13,502 bases of DNA from Gemmatimonadales bacterium (GTDB taxonomy: Bacteria; Gemmatimonadota; Gemmatimonadetes; Gemmatimonadales; GWC2-71-9): assembly GCA_038321865.1 (NCBI GenBank), contig JBBQFH010000051.1:1-13502 (forward strand), given 5' to 3'. The notes beneath the pieces are model-generated. The model had not been told where the DNA came from and ran no database searches. It saw only the letters and a program-made list of their open reading frames with translations. How positions within the stretch are numbered: the stretch's first letter is position 1; every line of letters starts with the position of its first letter. The position numbers were made by a program, and so were the translations under genes. Shown piece after piece: positions 1-13,502 of the stretch.

Positions 1-811
1 CTACCGCGGCGGGCTCCACCGAGCGGATGACCGGCTTGAGCCGGTCCTCATCCAGCCGGCTCAGGTCGAGCAGGTCGTTGATCAGGCTGACCGCCTGTCG
101 GGCTGAATCGAGCACCTCGAACGCCGCGCGGGGCACTGTCGCCGGATCCTTCTTGCGTACCAGCAACTCGGCCCAGCCGAAGACCGCCGCCAGCGCGTTC
201 CGGAGCTCGTGGTTCACCATGGCGAAGAACCGCTCACGGGCCCGGTGGAGCTCCTGCACTTCCTCGATCAGCCGGGCGCTTTCCTCGTGCAGCCGGGCAT
301 TCTCGACCGTCGCGGCGGCCGCGGCGGCGAGCAGCACGGCGATATGCTCGTCCTCATCGCTGAACACCTCCGCGCCGAGCTTCTCGGTCAGGTAGAGATT
401 GCCGAACACCCCCCGGCGCCCGACGATGGGCACGCCCAGGAATGAGTGCATCGGCGGGTGGTGGGCCGGGAAGCCGTAGGAGTCGGGGTGCCTGGCGAGA
501 TCAGGGAGGCGGATCGGGCGCGCTTCGCGGATGACGAGTCCCAGGATGCCATGCCCGCGAGGCGGGGGCCCGATCAGCTCGCGGTCCTCGGAAGAGATGC
601 CGTAGGTGGTGAAGCTCTCGAGCACGCGGCCATCGGGGGCGAGCACGCCGATCGCGGCGTAGCGGGCACCGATCACCGACGCCGCCACCTGGACGACGCG
701 CTGGAGCACGCCCTCGAGCGCAAGCTCGCCGATGAGGGAGGACGTGGCGACGACGAGGGCTTCGAGCCGCGCCTCGGTGCTCTGCAAGTGCTGGCCGGAC
801 CGGTGGGGCAT
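1..811 (-). CDS. GAF-domain sensor histidine kinase, DosS/DevS-like haem GAF + HisKA (3'-truncated by window edge)
   Basis: Not in the ORF track because it has no stop inside the window. Manual translation from ATG 811: MPHRSGQHLQSTEARLEALVVATSSLIGELALEGVLQRVVQVAASVIGARYAAIGVL...IGPPPRGHGILGLVIREARPIRLPDLARHPDSYGFPAHHPPMHSFLGVPIVGRRGVFGNLYLTEK...FSDEDEHIAVLLAAAAAATVENARLHEE...RERFFAMVNHELRNALAAVFGWAELL...LINDLLDLSRL. The GFPxxHPPM/FLGVP/FGxLYLT motifs match DevS GAF-A, and HELRN is a HisKA H-box. An in-frame stop at 880-878 limits upstream extension. Confidence 0.93.
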   Translation of the reverse strand, partial: MPHRSGQHLQSTEARLEALVVATSSLIGELALEGVLQRVVQVAASVIGARYAAIGVLAPDGRVLESFTTYGISSEDRELIGPPPRGHGILGLVIREARPIRLPDLARHPDSYGFPAHHPPMHSFLGVPIVGRRGVFGNLYLTEKLGAEVFSDEDEHIAVLLAAAAAATVENARLHEESARLIEEVQELHRARERFFAMVNHELRNALAAVFGWAELLVRKKDPATVPRAAFEVLDSARQAVSLINDLLDLSRLDEDRLKPVIRSVEPAAV

Positions 812-854
812 GCCGGAAGGTAGGGTCGGAGTGCCGGCACGGGAAACCCCTCGC

Positions 855-872
855 CTGAAGGAAGCTTCACCC
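855..872. promoter_or_regulatory. Putative transcription-factor site, copy 1 (CTGAAGGAAGCTTCACCC; TGAAG-N4-CTTCA dyad)
   Basis: Lies 43 nt upstream of the kinase ATG in a divergent intergenic region. An exact 18/18 copy is at 8659-8676. Confidence 0.65.
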
Positions 873-1186
873 CAGCCTCATGCCCCGCCGCCGGTGTCTC
901 CGACGATCCGGAGGCCACCGACGTGCTCGACGAGCTCCGGGCGGCCTACGCCGGGCGCCACCCAGCGGTCCAGGACAGGAGGCGTAGACCGGATGCTTCG
1001 CGTGCATATCGTGGCGAGCTTCGCCGAGGGAACCCGATCCTGATCGGCGGCGTGAGACGACGACTTGGTGGCGGAGAGTTTCACGCTGACTTCATCGCGG
1101 CTTCAGGGCGGCGAAATCAGACTGGATCCCGGTCGGGGTCGGTGCGAACGCGCCGGCCATCCGTGCCGAACCGACGAGTGGACATC

Positions 1187-1441
1187 ATGACGCCCATCCC
1201 AACAACGGAGGCGCGGGCGGCTTCCAGACAGCATCCGCTCCGCCGCCTGCTGGAGCAGCTGGACCGCACCTTCACGACCGAAGGGCACGAGACGGCGCTC
1301 GGGGTCGTGACCGAACTGCTGGAACGCCTCGACGATGACACGCTGCGGGCCTACGCGTACCGGCATGGCATCCGGAGCGAAGACGAATTCGAGGAGGAGT
1401 CGGGGCCGGATCGCGGCATGTCCCCGAGCCCCACGACATGA
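1187..1441 (+). CDS. Small hypothetical protein (84 aa), translationally coupled to the USP gene
   Basis: MTPIPTTEARAASRQHPLRRLLEQLDRTFTTEGHETALGVVTELLERLDDDTLRAYAYRHGIRSEDEFEEE... looks helical with GC3-biased codons. Its stop overlaps the USP start (ATGA, 1438-1441). An alternative GTG start at 923 has a GGAGG at 910-914, but the N-terminal extension is less protein-like. Confidence 0.6.
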   Translation: MTPIPTTEARAASRQHPLRRLLEQLDRTFTTEGHETALGVVTELLERLDDDTLRAYAYRHGIRSEDEFEEESGPDRGMSPSPTT

Positions 1442-2472
1442 GCACCGTCCCGTCGCCGAGCATTCTGGTGCCTCTGGACGGCTCGGTGCTCGCCGAGCAG
1501 GCGCTCTGGGTCGCCGCCCGCCTGGCGCGGCGGCGGCATGGGGTGTTGCATCTCGTCACGGTCCGGGTACCCACACCCACGGCCGGCGACAGGGCGGCGG
1601 CGCCAACCGCGGGCGCAGACAGCGGGCGCGAGATCCGGCACGATCTGCGTGAGTACCTGGAGGGCAAGGCCGAGGCGCTGGCCACCGCGCACGGGGAATG
1701 CTCTTCCTGTGGCGTGCTGCACGGCTGGCCCCCCGACGCGCTGGCGGACTACGTGCGGACGAACCGTATCGCGCTCGTCGTCATGACCACCCACGGCCGG
1801 AGCGGGGTGAGCCGCCACTGGATCGGCAGCGTCACGGACGGACTGCTCGCGCGCGTACGCGCCCCGGTCCTGGTCCTGCGTCCCGCCATGGTGGCATCGA
1901 CTGCGCGATTCCAGCGGATACTGGTCGCCCTGGACGGCTCGGCCGGGTCCAAGAAGGTCCTGGCGGAGGCCGTCGCGCTTGGTTCGGTGGAATCGGGCAC
2001 GGAGTTCACGCTGGTGGAGGTCGTCGAGCCACCGACGCCGGTTCCCCACCATGGGCCGGTCCATCCCGGGCCCGATTCGGCGGGCTCGCTCGGGCGCCGG
2101 CGGGAGGCGGCCGCGCAGGATCTGGAACGGCTGGCAGAACAGCTCACCAAGCGTGGGCTGGCGGTGACGGCGCAGGTGCTCGTCGCGCAGAGAGTTGCGG
2201 AGGAGCTCCTCACCCTTGCCCAGAGGCTCGGCAGCGACCTGATCGTCGTGGGCACTCAGCGCCCGCGGACGACGGAGCGGCTCCTGTTGGGAAGCGTGGC
2301 GGACAAGGTGGTTCGGGGAGCGAGCCAACCGGTGCTGGTGATTCCGGTCAGAAAGCGCCGGTCGCATGCCACGAGAGGGCCCGTTCGGCGGAGCGCCGAG
2401 CCGGGGAGGGCGGCGGCCAGATCAGCGCGTGCTGCCAGTCGGCCAGGGGCGGTGGCGCGGTCCGGGCCGTGA
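1438..2472 (+). CDS. Universal stress protein, two tandem USP domains
   Basis: Domain 1: ILVPLDGS...VVMTTHGRSGVSRHWIGSVTDGLLARVRAPVLVL. Domain 2: RILVALDGS...DLIVVGTQR...LLLGSVADKVVRGASQPVLVI. Ends in an Arg/Ala-rich low-complexity tail. Confidence 0.93.
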   Translation: MSTVPSPSILVPLDGSVLAEQALWVAARLARRRHGVLHLVTVRVPTPTAGDRAAAPTAGADSGREIRHDLREYLEGKAEALATAHGECSSCGVLHGWPPDALADYVRTNRIALVVMTTHGRSGVSRHWIGSVTDGLLARVRAPVLVLRPAMVASTARFQRILVALDGSAGSKKVLAEAVALGSVESGTEFTLVEVVEPPTPVPHHGPVHPGPDSAGSLGRRREAAAQDLERLAEQLTKRGLAVTAQVLVAQRVAEELLTLAQRLGSDLIVVGTQRPRTTERLLLGSVADKVVRGASQPVLVIPVRKRRSHATRGPVRRSAEPGRAAARSARAASRPGAVARSGP

Positions 2473-2629
2473 TCTCAATGAGGAGACGTGGTCCTCAGGG
2501 TGGTGGGTCGCATTCTCATGCCGTATTCACGGCCCGTTCATGGGGACACCGCTAACGTATTGGCATCGCCGTACAGAACGAGCTCGAGCGCCATCGAGCA
2601 CGACGGAGAACTTCGAGGGGAGGCACACC

Positions 2630-3298
2630 ATGAGAACCGACACCGAACTACGCACCGACGTCATCTCGGAGCTGAACTGGGATCCCAGCGTTCGCGATGA
2701 GGACATCGCCACCGCTGTGAAGGACGGCGTGGTGACGGTCGCCGGCATCGTCGACACCTATGCCCAGCGCTGTGCGGCCGAGCATGCGGTGGAGCGGGTG
2801 CTTGGGGTCAAGGCGATCGTCAACGACCTGACCGTCAAGCTGCCCGGCGCCCTGGAGCGCTCGGACACCGACATCGCCCATGCCGCCGTCAACGCGCTGC
2901 GTTGGCACATCGAAGTGCCGGACGAGCGGATCCAGGTCAAGGTGACGAATGGCTGGATCACGCTCGAAGGCGAGGTCGACCGGTACTTCCAGAAGGAAGC
3001 GGCCGAGCGCGCCGTCCGGTTTCTGATGGGCGTCAAGGGCGTGGCCAATCTCATCGCCCTGCGGGCCACGCCCACTCCGGCGGACATCAAGCAGCGCATC
3101 CGGGCCGGCATCAAGCGCCACGCCGAGCTCGACGCGGAGCAGATCGCGGTCGAGACGAGCGGATCCCAGGTCACGCTGCGGGGCACGGTCCGCTCGGTGG
3201 CGGAGCGGCGGGACGCGGAGCGCGCGGCCTGGAACGCCCCGGGTGTCCAGAGAGTGGACAATGACATCAGGGTCTCGGCGCCCGTCATGGTTATGTAA
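2630..3298 (+). CDS. BON-domain protein (OsmY-like, three BON repeats), 222 aa
   Basis: ATG 2630 follows GGAGG (2619-2623). Repeats: MRTDTELRTDVISELNWDPSV...VKDGVVTVAG...GVKAIVNDL; SDTDIAHAAVNALRW...VTNGWITLEGEVD...GVKGVANLI; ...VTLRGTVRS...AAWNAPGVQRVDNDI. No signal peptide evident. Confidence 0.92.
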   Translation: MRTDTELRTDVISELNWDPSVRDEDIATAVKDGVVTVAGIVDTYAQRCAAEHAVERVLGVKAIVNDLTVKLPGALERSDTDIAHAAVNALRWHIEVPDERIQVKVTNGWITLEGEVDRYFQKEAAERAVRFLMGVKGVANLIALRATPTPADIKQRIRAGIKRHAELDAEQIAVETSGSQVTLRGTVRSVAERRDAERAAWNAPGVQRVDNDIRVSAPVMVM

Positions 3299-3315
3299 CC
3301 TCGCGCACGTGCATT

Positions 3316-3353
3316 ACGACCCCTGGGGCGATGCTCATCGACCCAGGGGCCGT
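3316..3353. terminator. Stem-loop between convergent genes (probable bidirectional terminator)
   Basis: CCCCTGGG (3320-3327) pairs with CCCAGGGG (3342-3349), with an inner CGATG/CATCG stem. It sits between the BON stop (3298) and the convergent stop (3369). U-tracts are weak. Confidence 0.6.
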
Positions 3354-3368
3354 TGTGCGCCCCAATGC

Positions 3369-3794
3369 TCAACTTGGCGGATGGTGCCCCGCGTGCCCTG
3401 CGCTATCGGCGGGAGTCGAGTCCGCCCCAGGGATCGGCGCCGGGTGCTCCCCGGCCTCCGGCTCTTTCATCATGCGCATCATCCCTTCCCCGGGCTCCAT
3501 CATCTTGCGCATGTGCTCCTGCATCACCTTGCGCTGGGCGACCAGCTCGTTGATGACGGCGGCCATCGCCGTGACCTTGCTGTTGCCGGTCGCCCGGTTC
3601 ATCCGGCTGACCAGGGTGTCCAGCCGGGCATTCAGCGAATCCATCACCTGCATCTGCGCCGCCATCCCCGACTTGCCCGCCATGCCGCCGGGTCGGCGGT
3701 CCGGCTGTGGTGGCGCTGTCGGCTGCTGAGCGGCCAGTAGATGTGCGCTGAGCATTAGTGCCGCCAAGCCTGCTCCGAATCGAACGGTTTTCAT
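3369..3794 (-). CDS. Secreted Met-rich, His-tailed helical protein (candidate periplasmic Cu/Ag-binding protein)
   Basis: GAGG lies just upstream of the ATG. Sec signal MKTVRFGAGLAALMLSAHLLA|AQQ. 16 Met in 141 aa (EHMRKMMEPGEGMMRMMK) and a C-terminal GHAGHH. Confidence 0.8.
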   Translation of the reverse strand: MKTVRFGAGLAALMLSAHLLAAQQPTAPPQPDRRPGGMAGKSGMAAQMQVMDSLNARLDTLVSRMNRATGNSKVTAMAAVINELVAQRKVMQEHMRKMMEPGEGMMRMMKEPEAGEHPAPIPGADSTPADSAGHAGHHPPS

Positions 3795-3859
3795 GATGAC
3801 CTCATTGTGGGGAACTGATTTCCTCGCGCTTCCTCCACCTATAATAATGCGCAGCGGAC

Positions 3860-4119
3860 GTGGGCGAGCTCCTCGCGCCGATGGCGGGAATCGGTGTTGG
3901 TGAAGAACTGTTCACACACCCTGTCGGCCAGGGCGATGCGTTGCTCATCGATGCCGACCGCGTGGCGGTCACGAGCGCCGCGCACCACATCTTCACGCTC
4001 AACATCGGCGAGCTGGCGCCCGGCATCACGTTGCGCCAGGGCTGGTCCGAGGCGGACGCGAGCGTCGGAGGGCGGCGGGTAATCATCTCCAGCACGCACC
4101 CGGAGTCGAACTTCGCACC
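3860..4119 (+). pseudogene. Probable internal fragment of an endonuclease/exonuclease/phosphatase (EEP) family gene
   Basis: GDALLIDADRVAV...PGITLRQGWSEADASVGGRRVIISSTHPES resembles the RGW-x-VD-x-TV-G-R...F-x-NTHLE segment of EEP proteins. No plausible N- or C-terminus. Recognised from memory only. Confidence 0.4.
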
Positions 4120-4356
4120 CGCAGTGCAGGGTGGGTCCTGTCACCGCGCCGAGCCTTCGGCAACCGATACGCCGTCGCTGCCGTGGCGCTGGCGGTCCGG
4201 CTCCAGCTGCTCGCCAGGTTGTTTGCCCCGCTCAGCCGGGTACTCGACGTCGTGCCGCTCTCCCCGATGGATGGGCTGATCGTGGCCGCGCTCGGCCTGG
4301 TGCCCGCCGTGGTGGGCCAGACCGTCAAGTCGGTCCGCGCGCCTCATCCCGCATGA
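4120..4356 (+). pseudogene. C-terminal fragment of a cation-transporting (Ca2+-type) P-type ATPase
   Basis: Frame not in the ORF track: RSAGWVLSPRRAFGNRYAVAAVALAVRLQLLARLFAPLSRVLDVVPLSPMDGLIVAALGLVPAVVGQTVKSVRAPHPA*. This resembles the last two TM helices of Cation_ATPase_C. Its TGA (4354-4356) overlaps the ATG of the next gene. Confidence 0.72.
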
Positions 4357-5987
4357 GGTTCGCTCTCGCGATCCTGGGCCTCGCCCTCCTTTCGGCTCGC
4401 TCCGCGGCGGCGCAGGATACCGTTGGCGCCCACATCCGGACCATGATCGCCGTGGCCCGCCACCCGTGGGCCCGGCGACCGGATTTCCCCCGCCTCGTAG
4501 ACGTGGTGGCGCGGCTTTATGCCTCGCGCGGCGATGGCCCGGTCTGGCTCGCGGGGCGGCGCCTGTCCCAGGCCGGCCGCTCGGCCGTCGCCTTGCTGCT
4601 CGCCGCGGGCGATGAGGGGCTGGTGCCGGCCGACTACGATGCCGCCACGCTCGACGGCCTCGCGCGAGGGCTCCCGCATCCGTCCTGGAACGCGGTGGCG
4701 CTGGCGCGGTTCGACCTGCTGTTGAGCGTCGACCTGCTGCGATATCTCGACGATCTGCGTAGCGGCCGCGTGCGGCCGGGGCCCTTCGGCCAAGGGCGAG
4801 CGCCAGCGGGTCTGGATCTGGCCGTGAGCGTCGCGGCCGCGGCGACCGGTGATTCCGTCGCCCGGCTCGTGGGTGCGCTCGAGCCACACCTGGCACAGTA
4901 TCGAAATCTGCGGATACATCTGGCGCGGTACCGCCGCCTCGCGGCGGACACGCCCTTCGTTGCGCTGGAGGCGGACCGAGTGGTGCGTCCGGGCGACCCG
5001 TACTCCGGCGTGGGCGCCCTCCGCCGCCGGTTGATCGTGCTTGGGGACCTGGCACCGGCGGTGGCTGGCGACACGGGCGATGTCTACACGGAATCCGTCA
5101 CGAGTGCAGTTCGTCGGTTCCAGGTCCGTCATGCGCTGGAACCGGACGGGGTGCTGGGGCGCGGGACGCTCGCGGCGCTCAACGTCCCCTTTACGGCCCG
5201 CGTCGAGCAGATCGCACTGGCCCTGGAGCGTCTCCGGGCACTGCCGCCGATCGGCCGGCAGCGGTTCGTCGTGGTGAACATCCCGTCGTTCCAGCTCTTC
5301 GCCTTCGACTCAGTGGGTGGGGCCGGAGCGCCCGTGCTCCAGATGAGGGTGGTGACGGGCAAGGCCCTCGATACCCGGACGCCCCTCCTGTTCGAGGAGC
5401 TGCGGTACGTCGAGTTCTGGCCGTACTGGAACGTGCCGCGCAGCATTCTCGTGAAGGAGATGCTGCCGATGCTGAGGCGCCGCCCGAGCTACCTCCGGGC
5501 CAACCAGATGGAGGTCGTGGGCCCGCGCCGGGCGGTGCTCGGGGACGACGTCACTCCCCAGATCCTGAGGCGGCTCGCAGCGGGTGAGCTGAGCGTACGC
5601 CAGCGGCCGAGGCCGTGGAACGCGCTGGGCCTGGCGAAATTCGTGTTCCCGAACTCAGCCAACGTCTACATGCATGGGACACCCCAGACCGAGCTGTTCG
5701 CCCGCACCCGCCGGGACTTCAGCCACGGCTGCATCCGGCTCGAGGATCCGGCGGCGCTGGCGGCGTGGGTGCTGCAGGACCAGCCGGCATGGAGCCGCGC
5801 GGCGATCGAGCTAAGGATGGTGGCCGGCGTGAACACGCGGGTGCTGCTCAGCCGGCCGATGCCGGTCGTTGTGTTCTACACTACCGCGGTGGCGGCCCCT
5901 GACGGCACGATTCGCTTCTATGAGGATGTGTATGGCCACGACCACTCGCTGGTAGAGGCCCTGCGCTCCGTCACGTCGCCCCCGTGA
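4353..5987 (+). CDS. Murein L,D-transpeptidase, YcbB/LdtD-like (scaffold + PG-binding + YkuD domains), 544 aa
   Basis: Signal peptide MRFALAILGLALLSARSAAA|QD from ATG 4353. PG-binding motif AVRRFQVRHALEPDGVLGRGTL. Also VVVNIPSFQL, PYWNVPRSI, NALGLAKFVFPN and the catalytic YMHGTP...FSHGCIRL. Confidence 0.93.
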   Translation: MRFALAILGLALLSARSAAAQDTVGAHIRTMIAVARHPWARRPDFPRLVDVVARLYASRGDGPVWLAGRRLSQAGRSAVALLLAAGDEGLVPADYDAATLDGLARGLPHPSWNAVALARFDLLLSVDLLRYLDDLRSGRVRPGPFGQGRAPAGLDLAVSVAAAATGDSVARLVGALEPHLAQYRNLRIHLARYRRLAADTPFVALEADRVVRPGDPYSGVGALRRRLIVLGDLAPAVAGDTGDVYTESVTSAVRRFQVRHALEPDGVLGRGTLAALNVPFTARVEQIALALERLRALPPIGRQRFVVVNIPSFQLFAFDSVGGAGAPVLQMRVVTGKALDTRTPLLFEELRYVEFWPYWNVPRSILVKEMLPMLRRRPSYLRANQMEVVGPRRAVLGDDVTPQILRRLAAGELSVRQRPRPWNALGLAKFVFPNSANVYMHGTPQTELFARTRRDFSHGCIRLEDPAALAAWVLQDQPAWSRAAIELRMVAGVNTRVLLSRPMPVVVFYTTAVAAPDGTIRFYEDVYGHDHSLVEALRSVTSPP

Positions 5988-6027
5988 ACGGTTGCGGGCG
6001 CGCGGACCCGCAGGTTACTCTGATCGC

Positions 6028-6717
6028 ATGCTCCCGCCCACCAGCGCTCGCATCACCATGCTCGTCCTGGCGTCGCTGACGACGTTCGGGCCGCTGCGCG
6101 CCGCTCCACGTCCGAACCGCGCGGAGCCGCTGGACGTCATCGCCCTGGCCCACGCCTCCCAGCGCGCGGGGCTCCGCCCCGAAGTGCTTCGGCTCGCACT
6201 TCGGGCCCGGGACCGCGCGGCGGCGAGCGGTCTATCGGCTCGTCCGGTGCTCACCGTGATCGACTACAGCCTTCCTTCGCGCGAGCGTCGGCTCTGGGTG
6301 CTCGACCTGGCGCACGCCCGCGTCCTCGCGCGCGAGCTGGTGGCACACGGGCGCGGGACCGGTGACGATCGCGCGGTCCGCTTCTCAAATCGGCCGGGCA
6401 GCCTCCAGTCCAGCCTCGGCACGTTCGTCACCGGCGCGGCGTACTGGGGCAAGCACGGGCTCGCCCTCAGGCTGCGCGGGCTCGACCACGGCATCAACGA
6501 CCGGGCAGAGGCGCGGGCCATCGTGATCCATGGGGCGCCCTACGTCAGCGAGGCCGTGGTCGCGAAGCTCGGGCGGCTCGGTCGCAGCCAAGGCTGCCCC
6601 GCGTTGAGCCCGTCAGCGGCGGCCCGGGTCATTGGTCTCATTGGCGAGGGCACGGTCGTGTTCGCCTACCATCCGCGGCGTTCCGAGCACGCCGGCAAGA
6701 CCGCCGGGCGCCAGTAG
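6028..6717 (+). CDS. Murein L,D-transpeptidase catalytic-domain family protein (YkuD_2 type)
   Basis: Motifs VIDYSLPSRERRLWVLDL, VAHGRGTG, FSNRPGSLQSSLG, RAIVIHGAPY and GRSQGCPAL, with a hydrophobic N-terminal segment. Start uncertain (6028 or 6058). Confidence 0.9.
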   Translation: MLPPTSARITMLVLASLTTFGPLRAAPRPNRAEPLDVIALAHASQRAGLRPEVLRLALRARDRAAASGLSARPVLTVIDYSLPSRERRLWVLDLAHARVLARELVAHGRGTGDDRAVRFSNRPGSLQSSLGTFVTGAAYWGKHGLALRLRGLDHGINDRAEARAIVIHGAPYVSEAVVAKLGRLGRSQGCPALSPSAAARVIGLIGEGTVVFAYHPRRSEHAGKTAGRQ

Positions 6718-6722
6718 ACCCT

Positions 6723-6845
6723 GCCTCCGTGACGGCGGTCGTGACGATCGGGCTTCCGTTCACGCCGGGCGGCCGGCGGTACTTCGAGCTCATCGCGCCG
6801 CCGGGCCACGTCGTGGAGCTGGTCGTCCTCGTGCTCGTTACCTAG
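6723..6845 (+). pseudogene. Short fragment from near the C-terminus of an MgtA-type P-type ATPase
   Basis: Translates ASVTAVVTIGLPFTPGGRRYFELIAPPGHVVELVVLVLVT*. 6729-6764 matches 8025-8060 of the larger mgtA remnant at 30/36 nt. Confidence 0.65.
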
Positions 6846-6846
6846 C

Positions 6847-7253
6847 CTAGTTGGCTTTGTCGAGCCGGAAGTTCACGGTAGCGTCGGCCCCGCTGTAGAT
6901 CACACGGACCGTCCACGCGCCAGCGGTCCCGGCGCTGCTGGAAAACGTGCTGTTGTCGGCAAGCGAGCGGCTATAGACCTCCACCCCATTCGCGTCGCGG
7001 AGAACCAGGTTCACCGAGCCGGCCGCGACTGCCGCCGATTGGTTGACCGTCGCGGTCGTGCCGGAATTTTGCCAGCTGTAGACCTGGGTGCCCGAGAAGT
7101 TCTGGATATCAGTGATCTGGTACTGAAAGTTATCCGGCGTGTTGATGATCTCGGGATCGCGCCCGGGCGCGGTCGTACTGTCGCCGCACGCCACCAGAGG
7201 GCGGCGCCGGCAACCAGCCGCCGGCGCATGCTCTGCAAATGGAGAACCCTCAT
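6847..7253 (-). pseudogene. Small beta-rich lipoprotein gene with a -1 frameshift in the signal peptide (pseudogene or sequencing error)
   Basis: AGGAGG lies 7 nt before ATG 7253. That frame gives MRVLHLQSMRRRLVAGAAL, and another frame continues LVACGDSTTAPGRDPEIINTPDNFQYQ...VNFRLDKAN*. Adding one base near 7196-7199 gives AALLVA|C (lipobox) and a 135-aa ORF. Confidence 0.75.
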
Positions 7254-7314
7254 CGTCCACCTCCTGATAGGGAAGGATGGCCGCCGGGGGTCGGCAGCAC
7301 GGCAGGCCATGGAG

Positions 7315-7329
7315 GCAGGAGGAATGCCG
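7315..7329 (-). promoter_or_regulatory. Possible sigma-54 -24/-12 promoter for the lipoprotein gene
   Basis: Minus strand CGGCATTCCTCCTGC has the GG-N10-GC spacing, about 60 nt upstream of ATG 7253. Confidence 0.35.
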
Positions 7330-7461
7330 ACCGCCTGGCCGACGGGTTCCTCCACTGGGGCAACGACTTGGCGAGAGGCGCCGGGGTCGCGCTGTAACGC
7401 AACGTGTCGACGCTGTATCGTTTTGTGCCAACGCTCCTAGACCGTATCGCCGGCCGGCACG

Positions 7462-8060
7462 GCGGCGGCCGACGTGGGGATCTCGGTGGACTCGGGGACC
7501 GACATCGCCAAGGACGCGTCGGACGTGATTCTGCTGCAGAAGAGCCTGGACGTGCTAACCGGAGGGATCGTCGAAGGCCGGAAGACCTTCGCGAACATCA
7601 CTAAGTACATTCTCAACCACCATCAGCGCCAACTTCGGCAACATGTCGACCGTAGCGGTGTCCTCGCTCTTCCTGTCGTTCATCCCACTCCTGCCGTCGC
7701 AGATCCTGCTCAACAACATCCGAAGCGACGTCCCCCTGATTACGGTGGCGACCGACCGGGTGAATCCGGAGCTGAGGCAGCGTCCCCGGCGCTGGAAACA
7801 TCGGCGCGATCGCGCGGTTCATGGTGATCGTCGGGATATTGAGCGCGCTGTTCGACCTGCTGCTCATCGGTGCGCTGCTGCGCTGGCAGACCTCGGTCGC
7901 CGTGTTCCGCACAGCGTGGTTCGTGGAATCGGCCTGCTCGGAGGTGCTCGTCACCTTCGCGATCCGCATCCGGCTGCGGTTCTGGCGGAGCCGGCCGAGC
8001 GGCTGGCTACTCTGGAGCTCGCCGGCGACGGCGATCGTGGCGTTCGGTCCTCCGTTCACG
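7462..8060 (+). pseudogene. mgtA: Magnesium-translocating P-type ATPase remnant (C-terminal part, two frameshifts)
   Basis: Reads [28 protein letters not shown]...[15 protein letters not shown], +1 C at 7617-7618, [33 protein letters not shown]...PRRW, +1 A at 7796-7798, NIGAIARFM...FRTAWFVES...TFAIR...SRPS...PFT. It lacks the DKTGT and GDGxND motifs and the last TM segment. Confidence 0.88.
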
Positions 8061-8165
8061 CGCTACCTGCACCATACGCTGGAGCACCCCGTCGAGCGAC
8101 AGCTCCGTGATCAAGGCTGAGGTGGCGTAGATCAGGCGCTCGAGAAATCGGCCGTCGGCGAAGCG
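8061..8165 (-). pseudogene. 5' remnant of a second DosS-like GAF kinase gene
   Basis: 8144-8061 translates LERLIYATSALITELSLDGVLQRMVQVA. This matches LEALVVATSSLIGELALEGVLQRVVQVA of the kinase (766-683) at 20/28 identical residues with no gaps. Confidence 0.8.
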
Positions 8166-8561
8166 CTAAGCGCCCTTCACGAGATCGCCCACCGTCCGGT
8201 CCCGAAAGAATTCGGACACCCGCTCACTCGCCGCGCGCCACTGGTGATGGGCGGGGCACGGGTTCCGGTCGCTGCACTGGGGGCGGCCCAGGAGGCACCG
8301 GCGCTCGCCGGAGATCTGGTCGAACGGCTCGACCACGCGCAGCAGTTTCAGTCGGTGCGGGTCTACCGCGAGCCGGAATCCGCCGCCCTTGCCTCGGGCG
8401 GAGGTCAGCACCCCCTCCTGAGCCAGCCGGTACAGGGTCTTGGAGAGATAGTTCCGAGGCACCTGCAGTTGCTTGGCGATCTCGTCGACGCTGGCGGGTT
8501 CGCCACGATCGGCGAGGAAGAGCACGGCACGTAGGGCGTATTCGGCGGTATGCGAGAGCAC
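8166..8561 (-). CDS. Rrf2-family transcriptional regulator with probable Fe-S cluster ligands
   Basis: MLSHTAEYALRAVLFLA...EIAKQLQVPRNYLSKTLYRL...SARGKGGGFRL is an Rrf2 wHTH. CLLGRPQCSDRNPCPAH gives C-x6-C-x5-C-x2-H. GAGG precedes the GTG start. Confidence 0.95.
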   Translation of the reverse strand: MLSHTAEYALRAVLFLADRGEPASVDEIAKQLQVPRNYLSKTLYRLAQEGVLTSARGKGGGFRLAVDPHRLKLLRVVEPFDQISGERRCLLGRPQCSDRNPCPAHHQWRAASERVSEFFRDRTVGDLVKGA

Positions 8562-8599
8562 GGGGGCCTCGGCTGCGGGAACGACGTTTCACAGGCTAT

Positions 8600-8629
8600 T
8601 AATCATATATTCATGATAATATCCGATTA
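8600..8629. promoter_or_regulatory. AT-rich imperfect inverted repeat, candidate Rrf2 operator
   Basis: TAATCATATATT-catgat-AATATCCGATTA, arms complementary at 10/12 positions. It is the most AT-rich patch in the window and lies between divergent rrf2 and nosZ. Confidence 0.55.
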
Positions 8630-8658
8630 TACGAGCAGCCACAAGAAACGGGGGAAGT

Positions 8659-8676
8659 CTGAAGGAAGCTTCACCC
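8659..8676. promoter_or_regulatory. Putative transcription-factor site, copy 2 (CTGAAGGAAGCTTCACCC)
   Basis: Identical to 855-872. Ends 75 nt upstream of the nosZ ATG. Confidence 0.65.
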
Positions 8677-8751
8677 AGGTTCCACCGAGGCGGCCGCGCG
8701 GCGGCGCCAAGTTTCCCTCGTAGCCCCCACCGATTTCCAGGAGAACGACCC

Positions 8752-10782
8752 ATGTCGCCCACGACCGTGTTCCGCTTCCGCCGCCCCGCTGCTCTCGCGC
8801 TCTTGATGTCCGGCGCCGTGGCAGCGGCCGGCTGTGCCCGGTCGAACGCCTCCCGGCTCGGCGAGACCGGCGATGCGGCAGAGCGGGTGTACGTGGCTCC
8901 CGGGAAGTACGACGAGTTCTATGCCTTCATGTCCGGCGGGTTCGACGGGCAGGTGGGCGTCTACGGCCTGCCGTCTGGCCGGCTGCTCAAGCACGTTCCC
9001 GTCTTCTCCCAGAGCGCGGAGAACGGCTGGGGCTACAGTGAGCAGACCAAGGCGATGATGAACACCAGCTACGGTTTCGTGCCGTGGGACGACGCGCACC
9101 ATCCGCAGCTCTCGCAGACCGCAGGCGTGCCCGATGGCCGCTGGCTGTTCATCAACGGCAACAACACGCCGCGCATCGCCCGGCTCGACCTGACCCTGTT
9201 CGAGACCGAAGAAATCCTCGAGATCCCGAACTCGGGCGGCAACCACTCGTCGCCGTTCCTCACCGAGAACAGCGAGTACGTGGTCGCGGGCGGGCGCTTC
9301 AGCGTGCCGGCCCCGCAGCGCGACGTCTCCATCGACGACTACAAGGAGGCGTTCAGCGGCATCCTGACGTTCGCGACGGTTGACAGCGCCACCGGCCACA
9401 TGGCGATCGCGTTCCAGATCCGCATGCCCGCGTTCGACTACGACCTCTCCCACGCGGGGAAGGGGCCGTCGCACGGCTGGTCGTTCTTCACCAGCTACAA
9501 CAGCGAGGAGGGGAACACCAAGCTCGAGGTGAACGCCTCCCAGAAGGACAAGGACTACATTGCGGCGATCAACTGGAAGCGGGCCGAGCAGTGCGTGGCC
9601 CAGGGCAAGGCGAAGACGGAGCCGGCCCGCTACGCCCACAACCTGATGGGCGAGGACGGGATCGCGCGCACCGAATGGGGTACCAGCACCAAGGTGCTCG
9701 CCCCGGCGGACTGCCCCGGTCTGGTCTACTTCCTCCCGACCCCCAAGAGCCCGCACGGCGTGGACGTGGACCCGAGCGGCGAGTTCATCGTGGCCGGCGG
9801 CAAGCTCGCCGCGATCATCCCGGTGCACAGCTTCTCGAAGATGCTGAAGGCGATCGCGGACAAGGCATTCGCGGGCGAGGACCACGGGATCCCGGTGCTC
9901 AAGTACGAAGCCACCATCGCCGGTGAGGTGCAGAATCCCGGCCTAGGCCCGCTGCATACCGAGTTCGACGGCAAGGGTAACGCCTACACCTCGATGTTCC
10001 TGAGCTCGGAGATCGTGAAGTGGAGCCTCAAGGACTTCAAGGTGCTCGACCGCGCGCCGACCTACTATTCGATCGGCCACCTGATGATCCCCGGCGGCGA
10101 CAGCCGGAAGCCGTGGGGCAAGTACGCCCTGGCCCTCAACAAGATCACCAAGGATCGCTACCTGCCCACCGGGCCGGAGCTGGCCCAATCGGCGCAGCTC
10201 TACGACATCAGCGGTGATCGGATGAAGCTGCTCTTGGACTTTCCGACCATCGGTGAGCCGCACTATGCGCAGGCGCTGCCGGCGTCGATCCTCAAGGACC
10301 GCCAGGTCAAAATGTATCCCTTGGCGAAGAACGCGGATCCGTACGCGGCCAAGAACGAGAAGTCGACCCGGGTGGACCGGAAGGGCGCCGTGGTGCATGT
10401 GAGCATGACCTCAGTGCGCAGCCACTTCATGCCGGACAAGATCGAGGGGATCCAGGTCGGCGACTCGGTTTTCTTCCACGTCACCAACCTGGAGCAGGAC
10501 TGGGACGTGCCCCACGGCTTCGCGGTGCTGGGCGCCAACAACTCCGAGCTGCTGATCATGCCGGGGCAGACCCGGACGCTGGTCTGGGTCCCCAGTCGGG
10601 TAGGCGTGTTCCCGTTCTACTGCACCGACTTCTGCTCGGCTTTGCACCAGGAGATGCAGGGCTATATCCGGGTGTCGGCGAAGGGATCCGCGGTCGCGGT
10701 CAAGTGGAATAGCCCGAGCTACCGCGAGGCGGGCGAGCACGAGGCGGGCGAGCACGGGGCCGCCGAGCACGGAACCAAGTGA
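8752..10782 (+). CDS. nosZ: Nitrous oxide reductase, clade II (Sec/lipoprotein signal)
   Basis: CuZ His motifs DDAHHP, GNHSS, PKSPHG, GPLH, SIGH and GEPH. CuA domain DVPHGF...CTDFCSALHQEM. N-terminus ends in AVAAAG|C. AGGAG RBS. No C-terminal CxxCH domain. Confidence 0.98.
   Translation: MSPTTVFRFRRPAALALLMSGAVAAAGCARSNASRLGETGDAAERVYVAPGKYDEFYAFMSGGFDGQVGVYGLPSGRLLKHVPVFSQSAENGWGYSEQTKAMMNTSYGFVPWDDAHHPQLSQTAGVPDGRWLFINGNNTPRIARLDLTLFETEEILEIPNSGGNHSSPFLTENSEYVVAGGRFSVPAPQRDVSIDDYKEAFSGILTFATVDSATGHMAIAFQIRMPAFDYDLSHAGKGPSHGWSFFTSYNSEEGNTKLEVNASQKDKDYIAAINWKRAEQCVAQGKAKTEPARYAHNLMGEDGIARTEWGTSTKVLAPADCPGLVYFLPTPKSPHGVDVDPSGEFIVAGGKLAAIIPVHSFSKMLKAIADKAFAGEDHGIPVLKYEATIAGEVQNPGLGPLHTEFDGKGNAYTSMFLSSEIVKWSLKDFKVLDRAPTYYSIGHLMIPGGDSRKPWGKYALALNKITKDRYLPTGPELAQSAQLYDISGDRMKLLLDFPTIGEPHYAQALPASILKDRQVKMYPLAKNADPYAAKNEKSTRVDRKGAVVHVSMTSVRSHFMPDKIEGIQVGDSVFFHVTNLEQDWDVPHGFAVLGANNSELLIMPGQTRTLVWVPSRVGVFPFYCTDFCSALHQEMQGYIRVSAKGSAVAVKWNSPSYREAGEHEAGEHGAAEHGTK
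10726..10770 (+). repeat. 3 x 15-bp coding tandem repeat in the nosZ tail (EAGEH-EAGEH-GAAEH)
   Basis: GAGGCGGGCGAGCAC twice exactly, followed by GGGGCCGCCGAGCAC. Confidence 0.9.
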
Positions 10783-10847
10783 CGCGCGGGCCGGCCGGGG
10801 ACATCGACGTCCTCGCCCGGCCGCGCCCTGAACCACGAGACCATCGC

Positions 10848-11477
10848 ATGCGCCACTCTTCCCGCATTGCCGTTGCCGTCGCCGCGTTCCTGCTGCTGGC
10901 GGTCTATTTCGCCCCGCTCTGGCGGATCGAGCTGATCGCGCCGCAGTACCCGGAGGGGCTCGGACTGCGGATCTGGGTGAACCAGATCACCGGCCTCAAG
11001 CCGAACGACCTGAACAGCATCAACGGACTGAATCACTATATCGGGATGCACGCCATCGAACCGGACGAGATTCCCGAGCTCCAATTCATGCCCAAGCTGC
11101 TCGCGGTCGCGATCGGGGCTGGCCTGCTCGTCGCGCTAATCGGCCGCCGGGTCCCGCTCTACCTCTGGGCCGCGTCGTTCACCGCGGGCGCGGTGGCCGG
11201 CCTCGGCGACTTCTGGAAATGGGGCTACGAGTACGGCCATCACCTCGATCCGCGCGCCGCGATCCGGGTGCCCGGCATGAGCTACCAGCCGCCGGTCATC
11301 GGCACCAAGCAACTGCTCAACTTCCACGCGACGTCGTGGCCGGACATCGGAGGCTGGATTCTCATCGCCTCGCTCGCCTGTGTGCTGGTCGTAGCGGTCC
11401 TGGAGTGGCGACGCGTTCACGCGTCACCCGCCCGGGGGATCGCGGTCGGTGGGCCGGTCGCCCAGCCGTTGGCGTGA
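10848..11477 (+). CDS. nosB: Clade II nos accessory membrane protein NosB
   Basis: Motifs PLWRIELIAPQYPEGL, INGLNHYIGM, YGHHLDPRAAI and YQPPVIGTKQLLNF, with about four hydrophobic segments. Directly after clade II nosZ. An alternative in-frame GTG start at 10779 overlaps the nosZ stop. Confidence 0.85.
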   Translation: MRHSSRIAVAVAAFLLLAVYFAPLWRIELIAPQYPEGLGLRIWVNQITGLKPNDLNSINGLNHYIGMHAIEPDEIPELQFMPKLLAVAIGAGLLVALIGRRVPLYLWAASFTAGAVAGLGDFWKWGYEYGHHLDPRAAIRVPGMSYQPPVIGTKQLLNFHATSWPDIGGWILIASLACVLVVAVLEWRRVHASPARGIAVGGPVAQPLA

Positions 11478-11501
11478 CGCGGCCGCCGGTGCGGAGGCAC
11501 G

Positions 11502-12737
11502 ATGGGTAGCGCAGCTCTCGCGCTCGTGCTCAGCCTTGCCGGGCCGCCGGGCCCGCGGCGGATCGTCGTGGCGCCGAGCGGCCCGGTACCGACGTTGACC
11601 GCGGCTCTCCGCCTGGCACGCGCCGGCGACACGGTGGTGGTGACCGCCGGGATCTACCGGGAGCCGCGGATCATCGTCAGCGTCCCCGTCGTCATTCTGG
11701 GCGAGGGCACGGCGGTGCTCGACGGCGGCGGCACGCATGAGGTGCTCACGCTCCGGGCCGATGGCGTGACGGTCCGCGGCCTGACGGTGCGGAACGTCGG
11801 CGTCAGCTTCACCGAGGACCGGGCCGGGATCCGGATCGATGGCGTCAGCCGCTGCGTCGTGGCGGGCAATCGCCTGGTCGACACGTTCTTCGGGATCTAC
11901 GCCGCGCGCGCCACGGACTGCCTGATCGAGAACAACTGGATCGAGAGCCATGGCCGCCAGCAGGCTGCCGCAGGGAACGCCATCCACCTGTTCAACTCCG
12001 CCGGGTTCACCGTGAGACGCAACCTGATCCGCGGGCACCGGGACGGCATCTATCTGGAGTTCTCCCGTCGGGCCACCATCGTCGAGAACGACAGCCGCGG
12101 CAACCTGCGGTACGGCCTCCACTTCATGTACTCCGATAGCTGCGAGTACCGCCGCAATGTGTTTGCGGCGAACGGCGTCGGCGTGGCGGTGATGTACAGC
12201 CGGAGCGTGACCGTTGCCGACAACCGGTTCGAGGACAACCGCGGCTCGGCGGCGTACGGACTGCTGCTCAAGGAGATCAAGGACAGCCGCATCGAGAACA
12301 ACCTGTTCGCCCGGAACACCGTCGGGATCTTCGCCGAGGGCGCCGACCGGATGGTGGTCGAAGGGAACCAGTTCATCCGGAATGGCTGGGCCCTGCGTCT
12401 CATGGCCGACGCGGTCGACAACATTTTCCGCCGGAATCGGTTCGAGGGAAACACGTTCGACGTGGCGACCAACAGCCAGGCCAGCAGCCCGAGCAGCTTC
12501 GCCGGGAACTACTGGGACGGCTACGCGGGCTACGACCTCGATCACGACGGCTTCGGCGATGCGCCGTTCCGGCCGGTACGGCTGTTCTCGGTGCTGGTGG
12601 AGCAGCACGAGCCGATGCTGATCCTGCTGCGCAGCTTCTTCCTCGACCTGCTGGAGCTGGCGGAGCGGCTGGTGCCCGTCATCACTCCCGAAGCGCTGGT
12701 GGACGCGCACCCCCTGATGCGATGGAGGGCCTTGTGA
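11502..12737 (+). CDS. nosD: Nitrous oxide reductase maturation protein NosD (periplasmic beta-helix)
   Basis: GGAGG RBS and a signal-like N-terminus. Motifs GNAIHLFNS, HRDGIYLEFS, RYGLHFMYS, GVAVMYS and GNYWDGYAGYDLDHDGFGDAPF. Confidence 0.96.
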   Translation: MGSAALALVLSLAGPPGPRRIVVAPSGPVPTLTAALRLARAGDTVVVTAGIYREPRIIVSVPVVILGEGTAVLDGGGTHEVLTLRADGVTVRGLTVRNVGVSFTEDRAGIRIDGVSRCVVAGNRLVDTFFGIYAARATDCLIENNWIESHGRQQAAAGNAIHLFNSAGFTVRRNLIRGHRDGIYLEFSRRATIVENDSRGNLRYGLHFMYSDSCEYRRNVFAANGVGVAVMYSRSVTVADNRFEDNRGSAAYGLLLKEIKDSRIENNLFARNTVGIFAEGADRMVVEGNQFIRNGWALRLMADAVDNIFRRNRFEGNTFDVATNSQASSPSSFAGNYWDGYAGYDLDHDGFGDAPFRPVRLFSVLVEQHEPMLILLRSFFLDLLELAERLVPVITPEALVDAHPLMRWRAL

Positions 12738-13489
12738 CCGCCGCTCTGGACACGCGCCCGCTCCCGCTGCCGGTGACGGTGGTGTCGGCATCGGGGCTCA
12801 CCAAGCGGTTCGGCCGGCTGCAGGTGCTCCGTGGGGTCGACCTCGCCATCAGGGCGGGCCGCGTCACCGCGATCCTCGGGCCCAACGGGGCGGGGAAGTC
12901 CACCATCATCAAGGTGCTCCTCGGCCTGACCCGGGCGGACGGCGGATCGTTGGCCGTGCACGGCCAGCCGGTGGACGGCGACCCGGCGTATCGCGCGGAC
13001 CTCGGATACATGCCGCAGCACGCCCACTTTCCGGAGAACCTCACCGGTCGCGAGGTCATCCGCCTGCTCCGCGACCTCCGCGGCGACGCGGTGCCCGAGG
13101 ACGACGAGTTGTTCGAATCGTTCGCGCTTGCGGCGGAGCTGGACAAGCCGGTGCGGACACTCTCGGGCGGCACCCGGCAGAAGCTCAACGCGGCAGTCGC
13201 GTTCATGTTCCGGCCGGCCTTGCTGGTGCTGGACGAGCCCACGGCGGGACTCGACCCGATCGCGAGCGGTGTGCTCAAGGACAAGATCCTCCGCGCCCGG
13301 CGCGCGGGCACATCCATCATCCTCACCTCGCACGTGCTGAGCGAGTTGCAGGAGCTGGTGGACGACGTGGTATTTCTGCTGGACGGCCGGGTCGAATTCG
13401 AGGGCTCGCTCCGGCACTTGGCCGAGGCGACCGGCGAGACCCGGCTGGAGCGCGCCATTGCCAGCCTGATGCGGAGGGGTCCGCGATGA
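12734..13489 (+). CDS. nosF: ABC transporter ATP-binding subunit NosF
   Basis: Walker A GPNGAGKST, Q-loop GYMPQ, signature LSGG, Walker B LLVLDEPTAGLDP and H-loop TSH. GTG 12734 overlaps the nosD stop (alternative ATG 12722). Confidence 0.93.
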   Translation: MTAALDTRPLPLPVTVVSASGLTKRFGRLQVLRGVDLAIRAGRVTAILGPNGAGKSTIIKVLLGLTRADGGSLAVHGQPVDGDPAYRADLGYMPQHAHFPENLTGREVIRLLRDLRGDAVPEDDELFESFALAAELDKPVRTLSGGTRQKLNAAVAFMFRPALLVLDEPTAGLDPIASGVLKDKILRARRAGTSIILTSHVLSELQELVDDVVFLLDGRVEFEGSLRHLAEATGETRLERAIASLMRRGPR

Positions 13490-13502
13490 CGGCCGTGAAG
13501 GT
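13486..13502 (+). CDS. nosY: Start of next operon gene, probably ABC permease NosY (partial)
   Basis: ATGA overlap with the nosF stop, reading MTAVK... Identity inferred only from the usual nosDFY order. Confidence 0.5.

Follow-up and report, generated by a model that had tools for sequence, protein, structure and literature searches.

A phased TGAAG/CTTCA repeat predicted to join a haem-type sensor kinase to clade II nosZ in the Gemmatimonadales

NosZ is the main biological sink of nitrous oxide (N2O), and Nss and other Crp/Fnr proteins are described as controlling Sec-type nosZ in the Campylobacterota (PMC11539149, in excerpt). Unlike these one-component proteins, a two-component system is predicted to act at the clade II nosZ analysed here, which lies in a 13,502-nucleotide stretch of a Gemmatimonadales genome (assembly GCA_038321865.1, contig JBBQFH010000051.1, positions 1 to 13,502; this whole stretch is called the window). 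An 18-base repeat, CTGAAGGAAGCTTCACCC, occurs once between a haem-type sensor kinase gene and a universal stress protein (USP) gene and once in front of nosZ. The repeat is likely to be the site of an OmpR/PhoB-family regulator, which would be switched by the haem-GAF kinase at low oxygen (O2) and would activate nosZ together with other low-oxygen genes.

The kinase resembles mycobacterial DosT and DosS (DevS) in its GAF-A-like domain with a proximal His, a distal Tyr and the DosT-type Gly, but it has one GAF and HisKA where DosS and DosT have two GAF domains and HisKA_3. DosR is of the NarL/LuxR type and has a four-helix domain, whereas the regulator here is a winged-helix protein of the OmpR/PhoB family with a different DNA motif. 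Because of this regulator family and the single-GAF HisKA kinase, the system is not a DosS/DosR system; of a sequence-only reading of the window, which had tentatively paired the dyad with the response regulator of a DosS-like kinase, it holds that the dyad travels with the regulator of a haem-type GAF kinase. The DosR regulon is autoregulated and includes USP genes (excerpted text of PMC10034137). The regulon predicted here is likewise rich in USP genes and autoregulated, with sites at the regulator and kinase promoters, but unlike the DosR regulon its predicted targets include nosZ, NirK-like proteins and a cbb3 oxidase.

With activation by PhoB/OmpR proteins (pho box, ResD, CusR) the locus shares tandem 11-bp half-sites in place of a -35 element, autoactivation and the Response_reg plus Trans_reg_C architecture, the difference being a sensor of the DosT type. 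It is set apart from the heavy-metal CusR/CzcR-CusS systems by a regulator that scores below the TIGR01387 cut-off and a partner that is no membrane HAMP-HisKA sensor. In the rhizobial FixL-FixJ-FixK cascade a PAS haem kinase and a FixJ-type regulator act indirectly, through a CRP/FNR protein, and the nos genes are of clade I; a haem O2-sensing kinase stands there, as is predicted here, atop a cbb3-oxidase and denitrification regulon, but here the haem domain is a GAF and the action on clade II nos would be direct. CopR of Corynebacterium glutamicum is an OmpR-type regulator. It is copper-responsive, binds the direct repeat TGAAGATTTnnTGAAGATTT and has one site in its genome (PMC3140484, in excerpt). 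The TGAAG half-site and its 11-bp period recur in the present motif, which unlike that of CopR comprises an inverted pair and phased repeats, stands at many promoters and goes with a cytoplasmic haem-type sensor. The cyanobacterial NrsR repeat may be similar; a search for it turned up no paper. No published account of such a system or motif in the Gemmatimonadota was found in the open-licence PMC and bioRxiv literature; the component parts are of known kinds, while the wiring and the regulon appear to be new.

The repeat and its promoter array

The two copies of CTGAAGGAAGCTTCACCC, at 855-872 and 8659-8676 as the sequence-only reading had stated, were found to be the only exact ones in the 3,403,054-base genome, where one more site has two mismatches and there is none other up to three. 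Both are located in divergent intergenic regions and none inside a gene, again as had been noted: copy 1 lies between the kinase gene (2-811, minus strand) and an open reading frame (ORF) at 1187 followed by a USP gene at 1438 (plus strand), and copy 2 between rrf2 (8166-8561, minus strand) and nosZ (from 8752, plus strand). Their flanks, earlier called unrelated, do lack extended similarity, but at both copies a second box stands 11 bases past CTTCA, so that copy 1 (855-880, unstranded) consists of the dyad at 856-869 and CCTCA at 876-880, and copy 2 (8659-8684, plus strand) of the dyad at 8660-8673 and a degenerate TTCCA at 8680-8684; in G161, the closest relative, this box reads CTTCA. The earlier reading also overlooked a triple box at 1079-1105 and, at 3900-3915, a weaker dyad.

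Enrichment of the bare dyad TGAAG-N4-CTTCA in the genome, by which the earlier reading would have its element judged, was not seen (five copies, against 0-9 for spacers of 0-12 bases). Within the window, five dyad matches with up to two mismatches were counted where 2.3 would be expected; at least five were also obtained in 12 of 200 shuffles. The motif is significant because it is conserved in relatives and forms part of a longer array, not as a palindrome by itself.

Unseeded expectation maximisation was applied to the 110 bases upstream of 29 regulator orthologues, with the window's own genome excluded. It gave aTGAAGatttCTTCAt in all five best of 40 runs, with a log-likelihood of 291 compared with about 75 for three shuffled sets, and the motif was present in 26/29 of the regulator promoters. 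When the own genome was included, a further NTTCA box was observed at +22 in 20/27 regulator promoters, and strong nos promoters had a second box at +11 in 23/37 cases. A -10-like hexamer, defined as TAnnnT plus a looser variant and widened after inspection of the window's site, occurred at +38/39 in 26/27 regulator promoters and 19/37 strong nos promoters; in the window, copy 1 lies 38 bases from TACCTT on the kinase side and copy 2 lies 39 from CAAGTT on the nosZ side.

Tandem boxes were present in 65/79 kinase promoters and the dyad in only nine of the 79. Because most kinase/USP promoters have their boxes in tandem and lack the inverted half, the unit is best described as an arrayed set of TTCA half-sites, and copy 1 marks a kinase promoter of the ordinary kind that, unusually, carries a dyad. 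The lone palindrome originally described therefore stands as a conserved regulatory motif, but as one part of a unit made of an inverted pair and 11-bp-phased direct repeats ahead of a -10 hexamer. Direct repeats near the -35 position, which in OmpR/PhoB-family sites usually have a period of 10-11 bp, were found here with a period of 11. The array model gave 15 matches in the own genome, 14 of them intergenic (non-coding DNA being 11% of the genome); periods of 8-10 and 12-14 gave 0-3 intergenic matches, only 11 being enriched between genes. The regulator and kinase start codons often fall 5-7 bases past TAnnnT with no Shine-Dalgarno sequence, and this spacing suggests leaderless mRNAs. RNA runs shared at most 0.11 of words, with contigs mostly less than 95% alike and no start sites or conditions, and were not used.

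Among 217 distinct strong sites at the fetched loci, 14 of 23,436 pairs were identical 18-mers, which is an upper estimate because the pairs include orthologous sites, and the 14-base core of CTGAAGGAAGCTTCACCC was the second commonest (8/217). The own genome has eight strong intergenic dyads, and the chance of one identical 18-mer pair among eight is estimated at about 2%; the 18-base identity is uncommon, not extraordinary, and is largely incidental, with little added meaning. It may have arisen by chance (about 2%) or by local copying, either of which would leave the regulatory reading unchanged. The possibility that the element is a repetitive extragenic palindrome or an insertion sequence end, raised with the original description, is not borne out by two exact genome copies and by window proteins among which no transposase family was found on scanning. 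A repeat finder did not place the 18-mer in its 20 largest families and exposed a kinase relic (see below).

The linked kinase, regulator and predicted targets

The kinase relatives were the best 80 of 506 loci, all titled Gemmatimonadales, Gemmatimonadaceae or Gemmatimonadota. The best PDB match of the GAF domain was 2vzw (E 5e-44), which we take to be DosT, followed by DevS GAF-A. His118, Tyr140 and Gly55 of the kinase align with DevS His149, Tyr171 and Glu87, and the proximal His is conserved in 80/80 aligned kinases, the distal Tyr in 79/80 and the DosT-type Gly in 80/80. In DosS, His149 is the proximal haem ligand and Tyr171 the ligand-discriminating distal Tyr, while DosT has Gly at the position of DosS Glu87 and forms a stable oxy complex (excerpted text of PMC4082495). 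The architecture is a single GAF followed by HisKA and HATPase_c in 408 amino acids, with no HAMP domain. This fusion is not unique, as 15 of 41 proteins from the top 150 GAF matches carried HisKA, 18 HisKA_3 and eight neither.

An OmpR-family regulator directly follows the kinase in 71/72 loci. It has the Pfam domains PF00072 and PF00486 (Response_reg and Trans_reg_C), its closest structures are DrrD, PrrA and MtrA, and it reaches no named equivalog cut-off. In the own genome (G000), a kinase is followed by the regulator (C17:33005-33697) on contig C17, and contig C76 has a complete kinase gene (C76:4025-5251) but ends within the regulator gene. The regulator orthologue was found in 91/111, 3/112 and 9/27 genomes of three families, and the kinase in 100/125 own-family genomes compared with 8/175 others in the phylum sample; nosZ was present in 59/111 sampled genomes of the own family.

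Regions upstream of nosZ were taken from 126 genomes, which cover nearly all of the strong nosZ matches, contig-end fragments (G262 and one G239 piece) being left out and three truncated regions dropped. The nos promoter was defined as the first gap upstream of nosZ past co-directed genes and was scanned with the matrix, the own genome being excluded. A score of 12 or more was observed in 46/67 nos promoters of regulator-positive genomes (26 genera) compared with 2/56 of regulator-negative ones, and a score of 15 or more in 37/67 compared with 1/56, so that the motif is present at orthologous nos promoters, as the sequence-only reading implied. Shuffled controls gave a mean of 1.05 and a maximum of six. 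CRP/FNR boxes consist of inverted half-sites with a 6-base spacer. At the nos promoters only the 4-base spacer works (41, against 0-5 for other spacers), and the view that TGAAG-N4-CTTCA is no such box was correct. The two regulator-negative own-family genomes with nosZ lack the dyad, which softens the family-line caveat given below, though most promoters of their genus have a CRP/FNR-type box in any case. At the nos promoters L138-L146 (genus g50), L148 and L187 a CRP/FNR-type box is present, mostly replacing the dyad. Control of nosZ appears to have switched regulators within the own family.

In the own genome the array matches include both regulator promoters and the C17 kinase/USP promoter; inside the window they comprise copy 1, the triple box and one match falling on the Rrf2 box, and others precede genes for a multicopper oxidase, an acyl-CoA ligase, an HMA chaperone and cytochrome c maturation. 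Single-model matches add copy 2, an ScdA_N protein, a CBS/BON unit and the promoters of the other two nosZ copies. Of 251 genomes searched with the exact extended pattern, 57 contained it (46/111, 3/112 and 7/27 by family), with 77 matches in all compared with two for the reversed control. The promoter of the regulator itself accounts for 32 of the 77; the other 45 were spread over 32/104 regulator-positive and 5/147 regulator-negative genomes, as counted before three matches proved to be regulator promoters at contig breaks. The genes next to the 45 are USP (6), cbb3 oxidase (5), multicopper oxidase (4), V-type ATPase (4), NirK-like (2) and TolC-like (2), with single cases of NiFe hydrogenase, acyl-CoA ligase, cytochrome c, a YgaP-like protein and GYD/GroEL; apart from the three at contig breaks, one is inside a gene, and the remainder have unrelated genes, genes of unknown function or no gene within reach. 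A divergent USP gene is found at 50/77 kinase loci. The predicted set reads as low-oxygen bioenergetics with a copper component; one regulator over the kinase/USP locus and nos, as first proposed, is consistent with the motif shared by both, but the predicted regulon is wider.

At L114:11025-13223, L316, L318, L319 and L337 a strong site and -10 hexamer face ccoN across a gene of 217-228 amino acids on the opposite strand, whose start abuts ccoN with a gap of about 30 bases or less; this is possibly a non-contiguous operon with built-in antisense. The full extended motif stands at V-type ATP synthase operons in four genomes (L340, L348, L349 and L351). A gene family initially labelled nirK was found to be NirK-like in only some members, all below the NCBIfam cut-off, the rest being small multicopper oxidases; the gene behind the own genome's strongest site is a small multicopper oxidase. 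Behind the regulator, at L031:5081-7009 and L111:11980-13788, lies a P1B ATPase that carries a TPCP motif and lacks any additional domain at its C-terminus. On contig C8 of the own genome (L324, G000:C8:1-8000) a paralogous regulator is accompanied by a HAMP sensor, a multicopper oxidase, a Cys-rich small protein and a TTCA array at about 392-430.

A further input is likely at the window's nos promoter, where the Rrf2-family regulator would act through a box of its own. An rrf2 gene is divergent from the nos operon in 28/65 scored family-f1 promoters, and an AT-rich box was present in 18/28 promoters with adjacent rrf2 compared with 1/37 without; its inverted-repeat core is ATCA/T-N6-A/GTGAT. 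The repeat is a candidate operator for the Rrf2 proteins found at clade II nos, an uncharacterised subfamily with the motif C-X6-C-X5-C-X2-H common to relatives. TTCA sites away from regulator promoters were present in 13/52 regulator-positive genomes without a close rrf2 match, and Rrf2 is therefore not needed for the TTCA motif. In the sister family, 29/55 scored promoters lie between nosZ and a divergent gene for a different Rrf2 (about 30% identity). At L043:8324-8476 an NsrR-like palindrome was seen by eye, and an NsrR pattern did not match it.

Proposed mechanism and competing explanations

The motif, the array, the hexamer distance, the co-occurrence, the gene linkage and the conserved haem-ligand residues are observations; binding, ligand and direction of control are predictions from sequence. 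By analogy with DosT, the kinase would bind haem and be held off by O2, and its deoxy, nitric oxide (NO) or carbon monoxide state would switch it on to phosphorylate the adjacent regulator. Phosphorylated dimers would then occupy the inverted pair together with the phased direct repeats, as in the PhoB/OmpR mechanism, with the last box replacing the -35 element and the regulator recruiting RNA polymerase. The regulator and kinase genes would be autoactivated, copy 1 being positioned as if to activate the kinase gene and copy 2 as if to activate nosZ, where the Rrf2 Fe-S regulator would probably provide the second input.

A number of results weigh against this proposal. The contrast between nos promoters comes close to being one phylogenetic contrast, because the regulator largely coincides with one family; the sister family softens this caveat, as in 3/3 of its regulator-positive genomes a dyad scoring 23-25 stands between the kinase and regulator genes, but its sole regulator-positive genome with nosZ (G170) has no site there. 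Among the regulator-positive nos promoters 21/67 score below 12, several with a CRP/FNR-type box instead, and the own genome's other two nosZ copies have tandem boxes without the dyad. At a moderate threshold, non-coding matches to the bare dyad were not enriched (16, against 3-18 for other spacers). In four of the five cbb3 cases an antisense gene separates the site from ccoN, which is about 700 bases away. Among the NCBIfam models the regulator best matches the heavy-metal family TIGR01387 (220.9 bits against a cut-off of 279.2), and several targets are copper proteins. In the window itself the second nos box is degenerate, the -10 hexamer weak and the locus decayed, and the kinase's partner regulator is not in the assembly.

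The main rival is a copper or metal regulon in which the regulator senses metal, or in which a paralogue with a CusS-like membrane sensor acts, nosZ being induced as a copper enzyme. The TIGR01387 match and the copper targets would suit it, as would the closest published half-site, which belongs to a copper regulator, and the sites preceding multicopper oxidases (4/45 pattern matches examined), an HMA chaperone and the P1B ATPase; the C8 paralogue is 57-60% identical, its recognition-helix region is nearly identical, and its cluster contains both a heavy-metal-type sensor and a box array. However, only that paralogue has a HAMP sensor: the kinase linked to the main regulator has only GAF, HisKA and HATPase domains and retains the haem ligands. 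A paralogue class of 60-67% identity is listed for only about 7/61 genomes and the motif tracks the main regulator, while cbb3 oxidase, hydrogenase, USPs and V-type ATPase are not copper-defence genes and the TPCP motif of the ATPase presumably marks a P1B-5 type that is not copper-specific. A copper regulon is accordingly held to be unlikely, although copper cross-talk through the C8 paralogue is possible. It is also rather doubtful that the kinase and regulator bind the motif but answer to redox or NO, or are active in air. For DosS both redox sensing and gas sensing have been argued (PMC4082495, in excerpt), G. aurantiaca, which presumably falls in the family where the system is mostly absent, expresses nosZ in air (excerpted text of bioRxiv 2022.10.27.514152), and an ScdA_N protein lies behind a strong site; but the Gly at the DosS Glu87 position in all 80 kinases, as in DosT with its stable oxy complex, the targets of low-oxygen respiration and the geometry of activation argue for O2 and for activation under hypoxia.

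Binding of the dyad by an unlinked regulator, of CRP/FNR or other type, or by the adjacent Rrf2, appears improbable. Crp/Fnr proteins are the regulators known for clade II nos (PMC11539149, in excerpt) and rrf2 is divergent from nos in the 28 promoters noted above; against this, rrf2 is tracked by the separate AT-rich box, TTCA sites occur without a close rrf2 match, the N4 spacing differs from that of CRP/FNR boxes, which form a distinct motif in other nos promoters, and the motif moves with the kinase-regulator pair into the sister family. That the copies are a functionless duplication or recombination relic is very improbable, even though deletions have made the window a mosaic that includes a kinase relic and a broken ATPase, the dyad is unusual at kinase promoters (9/79) and, at a chance of about 2% for exact identity, copy 1 may owe its identity to local copying. 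In G161 and G217 copy 2 is native to the nos promoter, the kinase promoter that holds copy 1 is homologous to others and keeps the canonical 38 bases to its -10 hexamer, the motif is conserved across 26 genera and the copies have no extended flank similarity; the relic explanation is largely refuted for the motif and stays only for why the copies are letter-identical.

If binding and control by the haem-kinase system are as predicted, a DosT-type sensing module has been wired to a different output class. We put at about even the chance of a broader role, as a Gemmatimonadales low-oxygen master switch in which a DosT-type haem GAF, a class I kinase and a regulator of heavy-metal descent would directly activate clade II nosZ, cbb3 oxidase, NirK and hydrogenase by way of TTCA arrays across the family, and a copper-sensing paralogue that recognises these boxes too could join O2 and copper control of N2O reductase, itself a copper enzyme. 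A candidate sensor, regulator, DNA site and promoter geometry can now be named for a family of uncultured Gemmatimonadales, giving a candidate account of how N2O-removing microbes turn NosZ on that is testable in E. coli without culture of the host. The control of nosZ is predicted to differ by family, being O2-gated here and under other regulators in the sister family, and the motif would predict from sequence alone which Gemmatimonadales confine N2O reduction to hypoxia.

Layout and history of the window

The soluble GAF-HisKA kinase (2-811, minus strand; Pfam GAF_2 and HisKA) is cut by the contig start. Its predicted -10 hexamer TACCTT (817-822, minus strand) lies five bases before the ATG and 38 from the CTTCA of the dyad, and an mRNA starting from it is likely to be leaderless; copy 1 is homologous to the kinase/USP divergent promoter. 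The triple box at 1079-1105 (plus strand; TTTCA, CTTCA and CTTCA at 11-bp steps) stands ahead of the ORF 1187-USP unit, in a segment (1076-1129) alignable with G161. This unit encodes an 84-amino-acid protein of no known family (1187-1441, plus strand), which precedes the USP gene in G161 too, and a protein with two USP domains (1438-2472, plus strand; PF00582). A triple BON-domain protein (2630-3298, plus strand; PF04972) follows. The dyad at 3900-3915 (unstranded, score 19.5) has no -10 hexamer at the expected offset and may be a chance match.

Before rrf2 lies a broken remnant, the C-terminus of an MgtA-like P-type ATPase (7474-8120, plus strand; pieces of TIGR01524, Pfam Cation_ATPase_C), whose end is overlapped by what deletion has left of the 5' part of a second GAF kinase gene (8028-8145, minus strand; tblastn 71% over 28 amino acids) directly behind rrf2. 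The Rrf2-family protein (8166-8561, minus strand; PF02082, TIGR00738) has the C-X6-C-X5-C-X2-H motif and is divergent from nosZ, and the AT-rich inverted repeat at 8599-8620 (unstranded), which tracks adjacent rrf2 in relatives, is its likely operator. Copy 2 forms the nos promoter with a candidate weak -10 hexamer, CAAGTT (8708-8713, plus strand), 39 bases from the CTTCA of the dyad. The clade II (Sec-dependent) nosZ (8752-10782, plus strand) scores 916 bits with TIGR04246 (cut-off 625) and 358 with the twin-arginine translocation model (cut-off 625), and is followed at 10848-13489 (plus strand; Pfam and NCBIfam) by genes for a membrane protein without a family match, nosD and a nosF-type ABC ATPase.

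Over window positions 8149-13502 the identity to G161 is 90.6%, and the order in G161 is nosZ, the promoter and, divergently, rrf2, a YgaP-like gene, USP, kinase and regulator. Of this the window retains behind rrf2 only the first ~118 bases of a G161-type kinase, fused to the broken MgtA-like gene, and it is a decayed deletion mosaic relative to G161. The relic was also considered as a copy of the window's own kinase; this was rejected, as it is closer to the G161-type kinase (80% nucleotide identity to the G161 kinase start). The 18-mer of copy 2 is shared by the nos promoter of G161, with an intact CTTCA box, and a 15-mer of it by that of G217, which makes copy 2 native there. Three nosZ copies are present in the own genome (C51, the window; C17:38959-40992; C76:6-2039), each near a kinase paralogue. 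The window copy is 93% identical to nosZ of G161, which is of another genus, and 65-67% to the other two, and this closeness suggests lateral acquisition; misbinning of contig C51 was not indicated by tetranucleotide composition (30th lowest of 202 windows).

The stretches 873-1186, 3795-4350 and 7195-7480 matched nothing meaningful in searches. Between the copies, at 4353-6717, are two motif-free L,D-transpeptidase genes, one encoding YkuD with scaffold and peptidoglycan-binding domains and the other YkuD_2. Small proteins at 1187-1441 (plus strand), 3369-3794 (minus strand) and 6847-7194 (minus strand) have no Pfam match and have homologues in related loci; that at 3369-3794 is Met/His-rich and recurs near an ATPase in G153 and behind an array on contig C7.

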